IMG/VR virus record: IMGVR_UViG_2609459844_000008
Coordinates: 1-12,616 of that record
Strand: one strand, 5' to 3'
From: a virus
Lineage: Duplodnaviria; Heunggongvirae; Uroviricota; Caudoviricetes
DNA length: 12,616 nt
The position numbers and the translations under genes were made by a program. The notes beneath the pieces were generated by a model. That model saw only the letters and a list, made by a program, of their open reading frames with translations, ran no database searches and was not told the DNA's origin. Position 1 is the stretch's first letter, and the number at the start of each line of letters is the position of its first letter. This document shows positions 1,207 to 7,295 of the stretch, piece by piece.

Positions 1207-1215
1207 GGGAGCCGC

Positions 1216-1244
1216 ATAATAACGACGCGTAATTAATTCTTCAA
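1216..1244 (-). promoter_or_regulatory. Candidate sigma70 promoter for the tRNA cluster
   Basis: Minus strand reads TTGAAG (1244..1239), a 17-nt spacer, then TATTAT (1221..1216). Predicted start is 2-3 nt upstream of the mature 5' end of the first tRNA (1206), consistent with a short RNase P-processed leader. Confidence 0.5.
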
Positions 1245-1368
1245 TATCATCCGTTCTGGCTGACTAAATCCTGTACTTCCCGAACCGTCTGCTCAAAACA
1301 TTCAGTCTCCAGCTCAACGCCAATTGCACGACGCCCGAGCGCCAGTGCTGCTTTGACGCTACGGACAT

Positions 1369-1397
1369 AAAAAAGCCAGCCACTGGGGGAGGCTGGC
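1369..1397 (-). terminator. Candidate intrinsic terminator (minus strand) upstream of the tRNA promoter
   Basis: Perfect 7-bp stem GCCAGCC(1375-1381)/GGCTGGC(1391-1397), 9-nt loop; on the minus strand followed by six U (plus A-run 1369-1374). Confidence 0.55.
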
Positions 1398-1580
1398 GAA
1401 ACTCGTAGAGCAAAAGTGTTGTTACACTAACTTCGTCACAGGATTATCCTGCAATACTCAAAATACACAATATTTACAAAACTAATAGTATACAAGGCGA
1501 TCTTTAAGATTTTGTTATAAATTATTGCCTTTCTCCTCTTTCCATGAGCTTTCTGGGTAGCCACAGAATTCCGGGTACAG

Positions 1581-1604
1581 AAAAACCCGCTCAGCGGCGG
1601 GTTT
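1581..1604 (-). terminator. Candidate intrinsic terminator (minus strand)
   Basis: Stem CCCGC(1586-1590)/GCGGG(1597-1601), extendable with A-T pairs to 8 bp, 6-nt loop; on the minus strand followed by UUUUUCUG. Confidence 0.45.
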
Positions 1605-2031
1605 AAGCTGTGTGACGAAGTAACCACTCTTAACAGCATAACCAATTTTTTACGTACGTAAACCACTAAATGATATTTGCGAGAATGCTACCGAGTATTG
1701 AAAACACCACTACAAATACATAAGCAAATCTCAACAAATAACCAACAAATAATTTCCAGTGTTATTTTTAGCCGGTTTAAATTGAACCTTCAAATTATAG
1801 AGCACTTATAAATAACAGCCGTTAATATAAATTGGCTAATAGATTTATTTTTATTCAGCCAAGAGCCATGAATAGGATTCGATAGAAAAAAGTTCAGATA
1901 AAAATAGAGATCTACTTCACAAATCAAACGAGAAACCAAAACTAACATCTTGAAATAATCACATTGATTAGATGAATATTTATCGCGCAGTGACATCATT
2001 TTTTAATAATAGTTCAAAAAAAGGGCTCACG

Positions 2032-3114
2032 ATGAAAAAATTAACAGTGGCAATTTCTGCTGTAGCTGCATCAGTACTGATGGCGATGTCTGCTCAGGCA
2101 GCTGAAATTTATAATAAAGACAGTAACAAGCTGGATCTGTACGGGAAAGTTAATGCTAAGCACTATTTCTCCTCTAATGATGCAGATGATGGTGATACTA
2201 CTTATGCCCGTCTTGGCTTCAAAGGTGAAACCCAAATCAACGATCAACTGACTGGTTTCGGTCAGTGGGAATATGAATTCAAAGGCAACCGCGCTGAATC
2301 TCAAGGTTCCTCCAAAGATAAAACCCGTCTTGCCTTCGCTGGCCTGAAATTCGGTGACTACGGCTCAATCGATTACGGCCGTAACTACGGTGTAGCATAC
2401 GACATCGGTGCGTGGACTGACGTTCTGCCAGAATTCGGTGGCGATACCTGGACCCAAACAGATGTGTTCATGACTGGTCGCACCACTGGTGTTGCAACTT
2501 ATCGTAACAACGACTTCTTTGGTCTGGTTGATGGTCTGAACTTTGCTGCTCAGTATCAGGGTAAAAATGACCGCACTGACGTAACTGAAGCTAATGGTGA
2601 TGGTTTCGGTTTCTCCACTACTTATGAGTATGAAGGATTCGGTGTAGGTGCAACCTATGCTAAATCTGACCGCACTAATAATCAGGTTATCTACGGTAAC
2701 AACAGCCTGAATGCATCTGGTCAAAATGCTGAAGTATGGGCAGCTGGTCTGAAATATGATGCGAACAACATCTATCTGGCTACCACCTATTCTGAACCCC
2801 AGAACATGACTGTTTTTGGTAATAACCATATTGCCAACAAAGCACAAAACTTCGAAGTAGTTGCACAATATCAGTTCGACTTCGGTCTGCGTCCGTCCGT
2901 TGCTTACCTGCAATCTAAAGGAAAAGACTTGGGTGCGTGGGGTGATCAGGACCTGGTTGAATATATTGATGTAGGTGCAACCTATTACTTCAACAAAAAT
3001 ATGTCCACTTTTGTTGATTACAAAATCAACCTGATTGATAAGAGCGATTTCACGAAAGCATCTGGCGTTGCTACCGATGATATCGTTGCTGTAGGTATGG
3101 TTTACCAGTTCTAA
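2032..3114 (+). CDS. Outer-membrane general porin, OmpC/OmpF superfamily, closest in character to OmpD/NmpC/Lc prophage porins (360 aa)
   Basis: Start taken at the internal ATG 2032 with SD AAGGG 6 nt upstream, not the 1972 ATG. Signal peptide [23 protein letters not shown] then [16 protein letters not shown]; characteristic porin motifs ([44 protein letters not shown]) and C-terminal ...VAVGMVYQF ending in Phe. TAA stop 3112-3114. Confidence 0.95.
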
Positions 3115-3138
3115 TTTGATTACTAAAAGATATGTTGC

Positions 3139-3157
3139 GGGGGGGTTTGCCTCCCCC
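3139..3157 (-). other. GC hairpin between the Q-like gene and the porin 3' end; weak terminator candidate on the minus strand
   Basis: G-run 3139-3145 pairs with C-run 3153-3157 around a 7-nt loop; on the minus strand it is followed by GCAACAUAUCUUUU (U tract displaced ~8 nt), so terminator function is doubtful. Confidence 0.3.
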
Positions 3158-3250
3158 ACATATAAGAGGCTCCCTCAAGCCACTTCCTTTAGGAGCACAA
3201 CCTTGCTTCTAACTATATAAACCTTCTGTTATATATTACCCTTTATTTTT

Positions 3251-3280
3251 GGGGGCGTTGCAACGCCCCATTTTTAATAA
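3251..3280 (+). terminator. Intrinsic terminator of the porin gene
   Basis: Perfect palindrome GGGGCGTTGCAACGCCCC (3252-3269) followed on the plus strand by ATTTTTAATAATTTTT. Confidence 0.6.
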
Positions 3281-3302
3281 TTTTTAGTAAACAATTGGCA
3301 TA

Positions 3303-3686
3303 TTAATTAGAGTTATTAACAACGATATCCATCTCTAACCGGATATCTAATGCCATTAACATCCCTTCAATTATGCCCTCAGCCTTCTGTAACCTTTTCC
3401 CGATATAACCATCAGAGCAGCAATGCTTACCTGCCAGTGACATGAATGTCATACCGACTACATAATAATCTACTAATAAATCGTGCAAATCGCTGTTGTT
3501 CTTTTTCAGACGGGCCATGCACCCGCAAATAATCATCGCGTCATCGTCACAACATTGCGGGCGAGATTTTACTTTTGAAGTAATTAATCCCTTAAAACCG
3601 GCGGCAATGGACGACCAGGTCACATCTTCATGATTATTAGCCGCCCACGCTCCCCAGCGTTCGAGAACCATCTGAATATCACGCAT
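3303..3686 (-). CDS. Late-gene antiterminator Q-like protein (QuuD/DLP12-type, 127 aa)
   Basis: Start moved from the TTG at 3701 to ATG 3686..3684, which has SD GGAG 7 nt upstream. Product [24 protein letters not shown]...[16 protein letters not shown]... matches my recollection of the DLP12 QuuD-type Q protein. Last gene of the minus-strand operon, convergent with the porin gene. Confidence 0.8.
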
Positions 3687-3703
3687 CAACTTTCTCCACA
3701 AAA

Positions 3704-5002: not shown

Positions 5003-6399
5003 AATAAACGCTCCGTTTTACTGCCCGACATGCGGTTATTGCTGTATCTGCGCGGATTGCCCGGCGTCATGGGTGTGGAAAGAACCCGGGCACTCTCCTG
5101 ATCCACAGGCAGAAAATGCCCGTTATGAAAACGCCGGTAAATGGTACCCAGCGTGCCATTACGCTGTTTCGTGATGTTGATTTCTGCTATGCCTCTGGCC
5201 TGAGTTTCCGGGTTGTATACCTCATCCCTGTAAAGCATCAGAATGATGTCGGCATCCGCCTCGATTTCCCCGGAGTTTTTCAGGTCCGAGTTCATTGGGC
5301 GTTTATTGGGTCTGGATTCCACGCCGCGGGAGAGCTGGCTCAGAGCAATCAGCGGAAAACCGCCGGATTTTGCCAGGCTTTTAAGTCCCTTTGAGATTTC
5401 CCCCACCGCAAGGTCGTGACGCCCCGTGCTGCGGGTTTTAATCAGGCCGAGGTAATCGACCACCACCAGCGCCGTTTCCGGGTGTTTCATCCGGTGGTGC
5501 TTCGTGGTTGCACATATCTCATCAATGGTCAGGTTTGCCTGGTCCACCATCCAGATATTACGCCCCGTCATTCGTCCCACGCCCTGCGTGAAACGCGCCC
5601 AGTCTTCATCTTCAAAACGGGCAACAGACTTAAGACGGGATACCGGCATTCCACCGGCAGCAGACACCATACGTTCACCAATCTGGATGTTCGCCATCTC
5701 CATGGTGAACAGAAGCACGCCATGCCCCTGCTCAGTCACCTTGTCGATGATGTCCAGCGCAAGTTCGGTTTTCCCCATCGAAGGACGGGCGGCAATGAAT
5801 ACCAGGTCTCCGGGCTCCATACCGCCCGTTTTTGCGTCCAGTTCATCAATACCGGTCATCAGCGCCCTGGATTTCTCCAGTCCCTGATTGCGGCATTCAA
5901 CACGGTCGACCACTTCCGGAAGGACATCATCAATGTGAACCGGCTGAATGACGCCCTTTCCGGTCGACAGTGAGGCCATCATGTTCTGCGCATCCTTCAG
6001 GGCATCCTCGGCTGCTTCACAGGTATACGCATCACGTAAATTCTGTAATGCTTCAGTCAGTGTTTTTTCTGCATCGCGCAGTGCGGCATTGCGCCGCAAC
6101 GCTGCGACATAGTGCTCCAGTGAAGACTTCACCCAGGTTTTGCGTCCGGTGTCGGTAATCACCGGGGCAAGTTCCGGCATCTCATTGCACAGCAGTACGG
6201 GGTCAATGACGCCGGATATGCGAGCCTGTCTGCAAATCCCCGCGTAAATATCCCGGTACTGACGCACAAAAAATACATCCGCCGGAAGTGTGGCCAGAAT
6301 ATCCATCACTTCCGGATCGGCCCCACGCAGAAAAAACGCACCGATGACAGCGCCTTCCAGGTCATCGTTACGCCATGCCGGGGTGTTCTGGCTGGTCAT
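4999..6399 (-). CDS. Replicative DNA helicase, DnaB family (466 aa, phage-encoded)
   Basis: ATG 6399..6397 overlaps the upstream stop (ATGA); SD GGAGG upstream. Walker A AARPSMGKTELALD and Walker B LVVVDYLGL, typical DnaB N- and C-domain sequence. Confidence 0.95.
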   Translation of the reverse strand: MTSQNTPAWRNDDLEGAVIGAFFLRGADPEVMDILATLPADVFFVRQYRDIYAGICRQARISGVIDPVLLCNEMPELAPVITDTGRKTWVKSSLEHYVAALRRNAALRDAEKTLTEALQNLRDAYTCEAAEDALKDAQNMMASLSTGKGVIQPVHIDDVLPEVVDRVECRNQGLEKSRALMTGIDELDAKTGGMEPGDLVFIAARPSMGKTELALDIIDKVTEQGHGVLLFTMEMANIQIGERMVSAAGGMPVSRLKSVARFEDEDWARFTQGVGRMTGRNIWMVDQANLTIDEICATTKHHRMKHPETALVVVDYLGLIKTRSTGRHDLAVGEISKGLKSLAKSGGFPLIALSQLSRGVESRPNKRPMNSDLKNSGEIEADADIILMLYRDEVYNPETQARGIAEINITKQRNGTLGTIYRRFHNGHFLPVDQESARVLSTPMTPGNPRRYSNNRMSGSKTERLF

Positions 6400-7295
6400 G
6401 CGGCAACACCTCCGATACGAGAACGGTAGCTGGGCCAGTTAAACGACAACCAGTTGCGCCCGCCATCGGTGATCCTGTCGGCAATCCGGGGACTGATGAA
6501 CGCCCACAATTCTTCCGGTGAAAGGTTGCTGATCAGGATAGTTGGCAAAATACCCTCATACCGGGCATTGATAATTTCCTGCAAAATGGCCATTTCAGCC
6601 GCACTGCCAAACTGAACGCCGACTTCGTCGACAATCAGCAAATCCAGTGACGCATAATGCTCAATGACGTCATCCGCTGTTTTTTCACTGTCATTCCGCC
6701 AGCAGTTTTTCACAGCCCGGGTAAGGCGCATCACGTCGGTGATCTCCACACTGGCCAGATAGTTACGGATGATGTGTTTTGCCATTGATACCGCCAGATG
6801 ATTTTTCCCGGTACCGCAACTGCCGGTCATAACAATACTGGTACCGTTCTCCAGCATATCTGGCCAGTTCTCCGCATAGCGGCGACAGGCCGCAAGATTT
6901 CTGGCTGCGTCAGGATTAACCTCCAGATAATTATCAAACTCGCAGTCCCGAAAACGCAGAGCAATTCCGGCGTTATCAGTCAGTTCTTCCGCCTTGAGGG
7001 ACGACAGTTCCATGGTCAAATCACTGGCCTCAGCGATCAAGCAGTCAGGGCAGCATGAAATTTTTTCTCTGTCCTCGCCATTACGATCGATCCACACCAG
7101 TATATGCGTACGATATTTACCGTGTTTTTCGCAATATCCGCGATCTTCACGCATCAGGCAGGAACGATAAGGCCATGGCTTTTCGCCCTTCTGAGCAAAT
7201 GCAATCTCTGCCCGTAACTCATCCATTTCTGCCCGTAACTCATCCATTCGCGCCTGTAGTCTTGTTTGTTTCTCACGTTGGTCAATCGTCATCAT
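6396..7295 (-). CDS. DnaC-like helicase loader, IstB-type AAA+ ATPase (about 299 aa)
   Basis: Walker A GSCGTGKNHLAVSMAK and Walker B LLIVDEVG. The longest ORF starts at GTG 7304; ATG 7295..7293 is preferred because GAGGT sits 7 nt upstream. The N-terminus contains a perfect 7-aa duplication (MDELRAE x2). Confidence 0.9.
   Translation of the reverse strand: MMTIDQREKQTRLQARMDELRAEMDELRAEIAFAQKGEKPWPYRSCLMREDRGYCEKHGKYRTHILVWIDRNGEDREKISCCPDCLIAEASDLTMELSSLKAEELTDNAGIALRFRDCEFDNYLEVNPDAARNLAACRRYAENWPDMLENGTSIVMTGSCGTGKNHLAVSMAKHIIRNYLASVEITDVMRLTRAVKNCWRNDSEKTADDVIEHYASLDLLIVDEVGVQFGSAAEMAILQEIINARYEGILPTILISNLSPEELWAFISPRIADRITDGGRNWLSFNWPSYRSRIGGVAA
7207..7248. repeat. Perfect 21-bp tandem duplication (2 copies) inside the DnaC-like gene
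   Basis: TCTGCCCGTAACTCATCCATT at 7207-7227 and again at 7228-7248; in frame, encoding MDELRAE twice. Confidence 0.9.

Follow-up and report, generated by a model that had tools for sequence, protein, structure and literature searches.

The window analysed here, a 12,616-nt stretch of a Caudoviricetes virus record (IMGVR_UViG_2609459844_000008), carries a porin gene on the strand opposite to its phage late genes. [quoted passage not shown] The arrangement is the long-known NmpC/Lc prophage porin cassette and is not new; it has reportedly been described since 1985-86, the cargo unit having first been reported in phage PA-2 and in the K-12 prophage DLP12. We are confident, short of certainty, that positions 1669-3302 constitute this cassette of lambdoid coliphages, lodged between the Q gene and the late promoter pR' and outside the late transcript.

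The porin gene and its neighbours

The porin gene, of NmpC/Lc type, occupies positions 2032-3114 of the + strand and encodes 360 residues. Its ORF is intact, and the listed ORF (1972-3114) is the same frame extended to an in-frame ATG further upstream. The signal peptide (2032-2100) is given 23 residues, a length taken over from the PA-2 record; cleavage is placed before AEIYNK, in agreement with the sig_peptide annotation of that record. In a Pfam profile search the protein covers positions 1-337 of the 337 of PF00267 (Porin_1, E=1.2e-152). It matches the solved structures of OmpC, OmpK36 and OmpF with E values of about 1e-136 to 1e-115. Among the NCBIfam models, it scores 516 bits against NF007841 'porin OmpC' (cut-off 484) and falls below the PhoE and OmpF equivalog cut-offs. 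The sequence LPEFGG is found at residues 132-137 (PEFGG at 133-137) and the C-terminus is YQF; we take PEFGG to be a constriction-loop marker and the terminal Phe to be typical of porins. The protein is of the general-diffusion type and, from its similarity to the solved porins, is predicted to form a trimeric 16-strand barrel with an OmpC/OmpF-like pore. An ORF antisense to the gene (2365-3159, - strand, 264 aa) was rejected as a gene, since the frame simply has few stop codons: in eight homologues, its longest uninterrupted run varies between 99 and 296 codons.

The window belongs to a lambdoid prophage and includes modules for replication, Q, tRNAs and lysis. The neighbour of the porin is a quuD-type Q antiterminator gene at 3303-3686 on the - strand (127 aa), whose product matches PF06530 (Q21 family, Pfam, E=3.5e-53) and is also annotated as Q in the RefSeq record of a 99.8% identical genome. 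A phage-82-like Q was ruled out by this family placement. The Q protein is 100% identical to K-12 QuuD, 80% to the Q of an Stx2 phage and 84% to that of 1H12. Porin and Q are 188 nt apart and, being encoded on the + and - strands respectively, are convergent. The tRNAs, esterase, holin and lysozyme are all encoded on the - strand, so that the porin opposes the late genes in direction.

Between porin and Q, both a terminator scan and a fold of 3240-3290 revealed an intrinsic terminator of the porin transcript on the + strand (3252-3285). It consists of a 7-bp GC-rich hairpin (3252-3269, GGGGCGT-TGCA-ACGCCCC) followed by ATTTTTAATAATTTTT, and is kept in nine homologous loci. We infer that it would keep porin transcription out of Q. 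On the other side of the gene, the control region (1669-2031) has a GC content of 29.8%, compared to 44% in the porin coding sequence and 49.2% in the whole window. Positions 1610-2030 (30.6% GC) are the most AT-rich stretch of the window, all other 421-nt windows reaching at least 36.8%. The distal part of the control region (1740-1880) differs between phages and the proximal 150 nt are nearly invariant, region 1880-2031 being almost without variation across nine loci. The convergence with a Q-like gene, the opposition to the late genes, the terminator and the AT-rich upstream region had all been claimed in an earlier note from the sequence alone, and all are borne out. The span proposed there for the locus (1610-3280) does contain the porin but needs new edges: position 1610 cuts the late promoter region (1628-1662) and 3280 leaves out the last bases of the terminator T-run.

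Proposed porin promoter, 3' UTR and predicted expression in the lysogen

The porin promoter, PnmpC, is proposed to lie at 1950-1987 (+ strand), with the -35 element TTGAAA at 1950-1955, the -10 region at 1973-1979 and the start at G1985 or G1987. According to published work, transcription from PnmpC begins at a 'G', with the promoter located no more than 199 bp from the ATG (PMC11677980). The 150 nt upstream of the gene equal the K-12 nmpC promoter except for one base (1944), and the K-12 promoter is active by 5'-RACE (PMC11677980). The register is probable rather than fixed, and a consensus promoter scan gave no strong sigma-70 match at PnmpC. PnmpC of K-12 is a sigma-70 promoter activated by cAMP-CRP and repressed by OmpR, IHF and MprA (PMC11677980). 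The two CRP sites annotated in the PA-2 lc record (J02580) map with identical sequence to 1904-1924 (site 2, ATAGAGATCTACTTCACAAAT, + strand) and to 1608-1628, and nmpC is among the listed CRP targets (PMC3105977). In the proposed register the centre of the CRP site falls at -71 or -73. As a bare pattern, the CRP-like core (1906-1921) is at chance level, with 6 hits in the window for 6.7 expected. The earlier note had left out cAMP-CRP, the main documented activator.

That note had instead pointed to an OmpR half-site. The motif, ACATCTTGAAA, is found exactly at 1945-1955 (+ strand), where it overlaps the proposed -35 element; it carries little statistical weight as a bare motif. The window reads cTAACATCTT here, compared to cTTACATCTT in eight of the other loci. 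Repression of PnmpC by OmpR is stated in published work (PMC11677980). The half-site-like motif is compatible with this repression; by sequence statistics the motif itself is not significant. In a comparison with the ompC and ompF sites, we saw this one half-site-like motif (1944-1955) upstream of the gene and no array of tandem 20-bp OmpR sites. A homologue is induced 16.5-fold at 37 C (PMC8544407), which is compatible with H-NS sensitivity of the control region; none of the papers found on the subject reports H-NS binding at nmpC.

Downstream of the coding sequence, the structured 3' UTR (3115-3285, + strand), which includes a hairpin at 3139-3157, shares 94.2% identity with the intergenic region between nmpC and quuD of K-12. 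Its predicted fold is strong (MFE -56.9 kcal/mol, z=-4.9). In DLP12 this region yields IpeX, a 167-nt sRNA from the porin 3' UTR that represses OmpC and OmpF (PMC12197685, PMC5069750). By its identity and structure, the 3' UTR of the window matches the IpeX region and would be its homologue, although it differs from the K-12 sequence by substitutions in the first hairpin (GGGGGGG in the window for GGGAGGC). A search of Rfam gave no family for the 3' UTR, and 1210-3700 gave chance-level hits only.

To judge from near-identical homologues, the host would transcribe the porin from its own sigma-70 promoter, under activation by cAMP-CRP and repression by OmpR, IHF and MprA; a temperature of 37 C would induce it. 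Control by CRP in the lysogen would be as in the homologues, from which the expression data come; the cis sequence is identical. Under carbon limitation the porin could become a major outer-membrane protein, and its 3' UTR would be processed to IpeX, with OmpC and OmpF lowered. Through porin expression together with this lowering, the prophage would exchange the host porins for its own, and permeability and surface receptors would change. In strain NCM3722, NmpC makes up about 2% of the proteome, and more under carbon limitation; OmpC is more than 10-fold higher in an nmpC-defective MG1655 derivative (PMC8144880). The suggestion that a prophage porin alters the outer membrane of the lysogen is consistent with these homologues, which are expressed from prophages and change the make-up of the membrane (PMC8144880, PMC8544407).

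The porin could also be intact but silent, and have no effect on the lysogen unless mutationally activated. The intact nmpC of E. coli B is called quiescent in the title of Prilipov et al. 1998 (cited in PMC3333887), and in many strains IS5 or a different insertion sequence has inactivated nmpC. However, the window ORF is uninterrupted, the upstream 150 nt are those of an active K-12 promoter bar base 1944, and the NCM3722 proteome contains the NmpC share given above. We therefore regard silence as unlikely.

Placement of the porin relative to the late promoter

From the alignments, the porin cassette most likely sits between the Q gene and pR' rather than inside the late transcript. The pR' start of the Sakai Stx phage Sp5 was mapped by dRNA-seq (PMC7547250) and lies 258 nt before the 3' end of tR'; its coordinates were calibrated on the terminator (PMC7547250). 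This start is the A after TATCAT-GATAAG and aligns with A1628 of the window. The pR' homologue thus spans 1628-1662 on the - strand, with -35 TTTACG at 1662-1657 and -10 TATGCT at 1640-1635. The segment shows little or no variation in 434, PA-2, DLP12 and others, and each phage examined has inherited it together with Q and the porin. In Sakai and in P13374 the -35 element of pR' overlaps the last codons of Q and the Q stop abuts pR'; at exactly this joint the window has about 1.63 kb of additional DNA. The mapped Stx-phage pR' aligns beyond the porin as seen from Q, which places the cassette outside the late unit. The assignment of pR' rests on homology to a promoter mapped in a phage whose Q is 80% identical, and action of QuuD at 1662-1628 is putative. 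The claim of the earlier note that the porin is antisense to the late transcription unit is not upheld: in the direction of late transcription, pR' by homology comes after the porin, beyond the porin upstream region.

The sequences following pR' agree with those of Stx phages (Sakai Sp5/Sp15, 933W type), window positions 1668-1369 aligning with the end of Q, pR', StxS_L and tR' of Sakai. The shared features are the -10 region, the start site, the first hairpin, the RNase E motif and the terminator. The first hairpin, also obtained by folding (1581-1604, - strand, AAACCCGC-CGCTGA-GCGGGTTT, then a T-run), occupies roughly nucleotides +25 to +48 of the pR' RNA and is a candidate first late terminator. 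It is present in all nmpC-type loci and in the Stx phages, with one stem base differing in four loci, and was missed by the terminator scan because its stem absorbs the T-run. The StxS_L-like leader (1369-1628, - strand) carries the RNase E motif GU|AUU at 1456|1455, the tR' hairpin at 1397-1375 and a T-run at 1374-1369. Over window 1216-1582 the identity to the region downstream of Q in Stx2a phages is 86%, and the fold of 1362-1437 has a z of -3.1. The biology of StxS, a late leader RNA of Stx phages, has been described (PMC7547250). Further downstream, three tRNAs and an esterase are of the same kind in both. The window differs from the Stx phages in being without a stx gene, in the 1.63-kb cassette that splits Q from pR', and in its -10 element (TATGCT versus TATCAT). 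Downstream of the 1H12 Q, only a short TGGTTATCAT / TGGTTATGCT resemblance to the window pR' and a similar terminator hairpin were found. Another candidate pR', with a -10 GATAAT at 1448-1443, was dropped; the Stx-phage 5' end at that point is an RNase E cut, the true start lying 173 nt upstream.

Alternatively, the late promoter might directly follow Q, on the - strand of 3115-3302. Polymerase modified by Q would then cross about 1.7 kb antisense through the porin, and porin and late transcription would interfere head-on. In phage 21, the founding member of the Q family, the annotated pR' starts 7 nt after Q, which makes a cryptic promoter in this interval conceivable. Visual inspection of the interval gives a TTGCAA-N19-TAATAT followed by a TATAGT, the - strand of 3115-3232 has a hairpin (3157-3139) with a weak T-rich tail that may be a terminator, and the PA-2 record annotates a - strand 'ORF1' as starting in the interval. 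However, the hand-picked hexamers require a 19-nt spacer, and the promoter scan gave no - strand promoter between Q and the porin. Moreover, 3115-3302 is already explained by the IpeX 3' UTR and the porin terminator. The experimentally mapped pR' of the nearest Q relatives that have been characterised aligns instead to 1662-1628, a segment inherited with Q and the porin in all phages examined. A late promoter next to Q is accordingly quite unlikely. A likeness to the phage 21 pR' proposed at 2017-1964 (- strand) was rejected (23/54 ungapped matches, no better than many registers). If the porin lies between Q and pR', porin and late transcription should not collide head-on, and only early read-through past Q would be predicted to cross the porin gene antisense. 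The corrected placement changes the expected interplay of porin and phage late-gene expression.

The late genes may be fed by more than one - strand promoter. A sigmaE-type promoter, the 'essDp' of DLP12, lies at 1983-2015 on the - strand (GAACT-N16-GTCA, start A1983) and reads away from the porin; the match has a chance expectation of 0.3 and is identical to K-12. The lysis-operon start of DLP12 was placed via an amplicon (-121 to +650) and its forward primer (PMC7918800), and is equivalent to 1983, not to 1628. The start at 1983 is about 2-4 nt from the proposed porin start on the + strand. The sigmaE-type promoter and PnmpC would share one piece of DNA while pointing in opposite directions, and could exclude each other. 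Transcripts from 1983 would continue into pR' and the late leader, so that the cassette might act as a host-controlled switch rather than as passive cargo, setting porin and IpeX against low-level expression of the late leader (StxS-like RNA) or lysis genes in uninduced lysogens. Its inputs would be carbon status via CRP and envelope stress via sigmaE and OmpR. We give this proposal a low probability.

Relationship to known porin cassettes

The block 1580-3686 is 92.7% identical in nucleotides to the nmpC-quuD block of DLP12. Of the comparisons that the earlier note had proposed, that with NmpC gave 90% aa identity (NmpC being rebuilt without IS5), and that with PA-2 lc gave 91% nt identity over the upstream region and coding sequence. 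The high identity includes the non-coding flanks, and the gene adjoins a quuD-type Q and converges with it. The cassette occurs in 36 phage records, each time next to a quuD-type Q. With a coverage of at least 80%, it is also present in 2474 of the 5426 complete E. coli genomes. Its closest relatives in phages are in 434, PA-2, mEp332 and the ev and PhiR series. The view of the porin as a prophage-borne moron with its own terminator agrees with these homologues, which are in phages and not all chromosomal. It also agrees with the extra DNA between Q and pR', adjacent in Sp5 and P13374, with a terminator evident from the sequence and a promoter assigned by identity to the 5'-RACE-mapped PnmpC, and with the GC contents of control region and coding sequence relative to the window.

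That the porin is an ordinary chromosomal ompC/ompD-type paralogue next to phage genes, as the names 'ompC' or 'OmpD' in RefSeq and several phage records might suggest, is hardly credible given the lambdoid modules of the window and the presence of the whole block, with both flanks, in the virion-derived phages 434, PA-2, PhiR series, Kati and Turner. OmpC, OmpF, PhoE and Salmonella OmpD do share its fold family, the full-length Porin_1 domain, PEFGG and the C-terminal Phe. The control region is unlike that of chromosomal porins, with one half-site-like motif and CRP sites and no triple OmpR array seen.

As a discovery this carries little weight, being a rediscovery of one of the first described phage-borne host-fitness genes. 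Its value is in annotation: many genomes and phage records carry the porin under the wrong name, 'ompC' or 'OmpD', and the IpeX 3' UTR and adjoining late promoter are usually missing. Close to half of the complete E. coli genomes have the cassette, which can supply a major porin and lower OmpC and OmpF; this is relevant to permeability to antibiotics, to sensitivity to colicins and phages, and to proteome studies.

Within the family, DLP12 nmpC has the same orientation, convergent with quuD, and the same promoter-proximal 150 nt. The window copy is intact, unlike K-12 nmpC, which is split by IS5. Amino acid differences from NmpC cluster at residues about 181-187, 214-235 and 262-266, together with two short indels. 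Downstream, the DLP12 holin follows about 120 nt after the hairpin, whereas the window has the Stx-phage-type leader, tRNAs and esterase instead. The PA-2 lc protein is 5 residues longer than the window porin and has another variant of the variable segments. By these variants, PA-2 groups with DLP12, Turner and PhiR29_1, and the window with PhiR34_1 and ev099.

Identity and distribution of the porin cassette

The window, which belongs to a lambda-like E. coli prophage, is 99.8% identical to chromosomal prophage regions of isolate AF39 and of O111:H21 strain 15A. In the matching RefSeq region the - strand carries replication genes, a DUF968 gene, quuD, three tRNAs, a SASA-family esterase, a holin and a lysozyme, and the + strand carries a gene annotated 'porin OmpC'. 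The porin ORF (2032-3114, + strand) encodes 360 residues, the first 23 of which precede AEIYNK. As the earlier note had described, it is convergent with the Q antiterminator gene (3303-3686, - strand; Q21 family, PF06530), with 188 nt between them. The protein covers the entire Pfam Porin_1 profile (E=1.2e-152) and matches solved chains of OmpC, OmpK36, OmpK37 and OmpF with E values of about 1e-136 to 1e-115. Among NCBIfam models, it exceeds the cut-off of the 'porin OmpC' subfamily and falls short of those of the PhoE and OmpF equivalogs. A 264-residue ORF antisense to it (2365-3159, - strand) has annotated relatives in the phage 434 and PA-2 records; it is probably no gene, the frame being merely stop-poor and its length not conserved.

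The feature, real and well delimited, is not new: as the NmpC/Lc porin cassette it was already known in the mid-1980s. With IS5 taken out, the nmpC-quuD block of the K-12 prophage DLP12 shares 92.7% identity with segment 1580-3686. The porin and the reconstructed NmpC protein share 90%, and the upstream region and CDS are 91% identical to the lc gene of phage PA-2 (GenBank J02580). The cassette occurs in 36 phage records, including 434, mEp332, the ev and PhiR series, Kati and Turner. The earlier note was right to read it as prophage cargo with an effect on the outer membrane. The phage 434 copy carries the same IS5 insertion as that of K-12. In all six records opened (434, PhiR34_1, Turner, PhiR29_1, ev017 and ev099) the cassette is convergent with a Q gene of the window's type. 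A copy spanning at least 80% of 1620-3290 is found in 2474 of 5426 complete E. coli genomes. What strain IGC_RcoliRes_1.1 retains is a degraded DLP12-like remnant: the porin upstream region alone (82% identical; 3001-3379 of that locus), with ybcM, ybcL and an IS200/IS605 element beside it.

Among eight homologues, amino acid differences and two short indels are concentrated at residues ~181-187, 214-235 and 262-266, and a few more differences fall in the C-terminal third. Variation is almost absent from the first 180 residues, which include the PEFGG motif. By analogy with OmpC and OmpF, the variable segments would be surface loops.

Position of the cassette relative to the late promoter

The Q protein is identical to K-12 QuuD (100%), and shares 84% identity with Q of phage 1H12, 80% with the 144-residue Q of the Stx2a phage P13374 (933W type) and 32% with Q of phage 21. 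Segment 1216-1582 is 86% identical to Stx2a phage DNA directly downstream of Q, and the alignment extends to ~1668. In Sakai Sp5, the start of the late promoter pR' was mapped by dRNA-seq and Term-seq 258 nt upstream of the 3' end of the late terminator tR' (PMC7547250). Calibrated on the terminator of the current Sakai record, this start is the A after TATCAT-GATAAG, which aligns with A1628 (- strand) of the window. The aligned pR' homologue has a -35 element TTTACG (1662-1657), a -10 element TATGCT (1640-1635) and a start at A1628, and is followed on the same strand by a predicted hairpin with a T-run (1604-1581). The pR' segment and this hairpin are present in 434, PA-2, DLP12 and all other aligned nmpC-type loci. 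In Sakai and P13374 the pR' -35 element overlaps the final Q codons, whereas in the window ~1.63 kb (3302 to ~1669) separates it from the Q stop. Thus the cassette is an insertion between Q and pR'.

By this position the cassette qualifies as a moron, and on the best evidence here the porin most likely lies outside the late transcript. The porin had been described as antisense to the late transcription unit; this appears incorrect, since pR' aligns to 1662-1628, beyond the gene. A late promoter next to Q, on Q's side of the porin, is improbable: in phage 21 pR' does adjoin Q, but the promoter scan found none at that place in the window. With pR' beyond the porin, antisense crossing of the gene would occur only by early transcription reading past Q, and a - strand hairpin at 3157-3139 may limit such read-through.

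Promoter and 3′ end of the porin gene

The region 1610-2030 was correctly noted as AT-rich: no other 421-nt stretch of the window has so low a GC content (30.6%; whole window 49.2%). The 150 nt 5′ of the ATG are almost invariant in nine aligned loci. In K-12 the nmpC promoter lies at most 199 bp from the start codon and transcription starts at a G by 5′-RACE; CRP activates it via two operators, and OmpR, IHF and MprA repress it (PMC11677980, 2024). Genomic SELEX lists nmpC among CRP targets (PMC3105977). In NCM3722, with intact nmpC, NmpC is ~2% of the proteome and higher under carbon limitation; in an nmpC-defective MG1655 derivative OmpC is >10-fold higher (PMC8144880). Warming from 23 C to 37 C raises nmpC mRNA 16.5-fold (PMC8544407).

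We infer a porin promoter with -35 TTGAAA (1950-1955), -10 at ~1973-1979 and a start at G1985 or G1987. Two CRP sites annotated in the PA-2 record can be placed in the window with identical sequence, at 1904-1924 and at 1608-1628. The first of these, CRP site 2, would then have its centre at -71 or -73, a distance common for activation. The other, PA-2 'CRP site 1', covers +1 to +21 of the pR' transcript and is also kept in Stx phages without a porin; its conservation may reflect late-promoter function rather than porin control. The OmpR-like motif ACATCTTGAAA is present at 1945-1955 as noted earlier; it overlaps the inferred -35 element, a position that would suit a repressor. Position 1944 is A in the window and T in eight other NmpC/Lc promoters (cTAACATCTT versus cTTACATCTT). 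Statistically, the CRP core and the OmpR-like word are both unremarkable when taken as motifs alone. The OmpR suggestion is compatible with the K-12 literature (PMC11677980); the earlier account of regulation missed the documented CRP control. The literature search yielded no direct evidence for H-NS control of nmpC.

A second, - strand promoter is possible within the cassette. According to a 2021 paper (PMC7918800), the DLP12 lysis-operon control region was amplified 'from -121 to +650' of a start published in 2015. The forward primer lies in nmpC codons, and the K-12 amplicon, so described, would place +1 at the equivalent of A1983 (- strand), where the sequence is identical to K-12. A1983 lies 6 nt past GTCACT, with GAACT 16 nt further upstream, an arrangement that resembles a sigmaE layout. 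This start is 2-4 nt from the inferred porin start on the + strand, and the two promoters would overlap completely. That they form a switch is a proposal we consider unlikely.

The gene does have its own terminator, as claimed, a 7-bp GC-rich hairpin with a T-run (3252-3285, + strand; terminator scan and fold), but that description overlooked the IpeX 3′ UTR. In DLP12, the 167-nt sRNA IpeX is processed out of the porin transcript and represses OmpC and OmpF (PMC12197685, PMC5069750). The 188-nt porin-Q interval matches K-12 with 94% identity, shows equal conservation (94%) over nine loci, and folds at -56.9 kcal/mol on the + strand (z=-4.9 against shuffled controls); no Rfam model matches it. 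By analogy, the gene probably yields a second functional product in the form of its 3′ UTR. The - strand sequence immediately following the Q stop is GTTTACTAAAAATTATTAAAAAT (3272-3296), similar to the pR' -35 element and spacer GTTTACGTACGTAAAAAATTGGT (1641-1663, - strand). The insertion event may have left this likeness behind as a footprint. Read on the opposite strand, the same stretch furnishes the T-run of the porin terminator.

Late leader and cargo in related phages

The holin gene of DLP12 and 434 lies ~120 nt past the hairpin; in the window that place is taken by a late leader of the Stx-phage type. This homologue of the late-leader RNA StxS_L (1628 to ~1369, - strand) contains an RNase E motif (1456|1455) and the tR' hairpin (1397-1375) with its T-run. 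StxS has been reported as an RpoS activator; here the homologue is carried by a prophage without a stx gene, none being present in the window. A DNA methyltransferase pseudogene remnant (1247-1360, - strand) lies 5′ of three tRNAs of the ileZ-argN-argO kind (961-1206, - strand; Arg-tct, Arg-tcg and a CAT anticodon, Ile per RefSeq), an arrangement shared with the DNA downstream of pR' in Stx phages. A strong Rfam match to STnc100 (694-884, - strand; 139 bits, E=1e-31), flanked by the tRNAs on one side and the nanS-like esterase gene on the other, occupies the position of stxAB in Stx phages.

In phages 1H12 (2802-3326 of its locus) and IdasGreatGrand (2803-3327), a lipocalin (Blc) gene fills the window's porin slot, convergent with the 84%-identical Q. 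About 20 nt past their Q stop stands TGGTTATCAT, which resembles the pR' -10 region, so that Blc, unlike the window porin, may be downstream of pR'. In 434 a gene for an LpxR-like outer-membrane lipid A deacylase (6255-7214 of its locus) lies directly upstream of Q, antisense to its neighbours, which gives the Q/porin region a second cargo gene that modifies the envelope.
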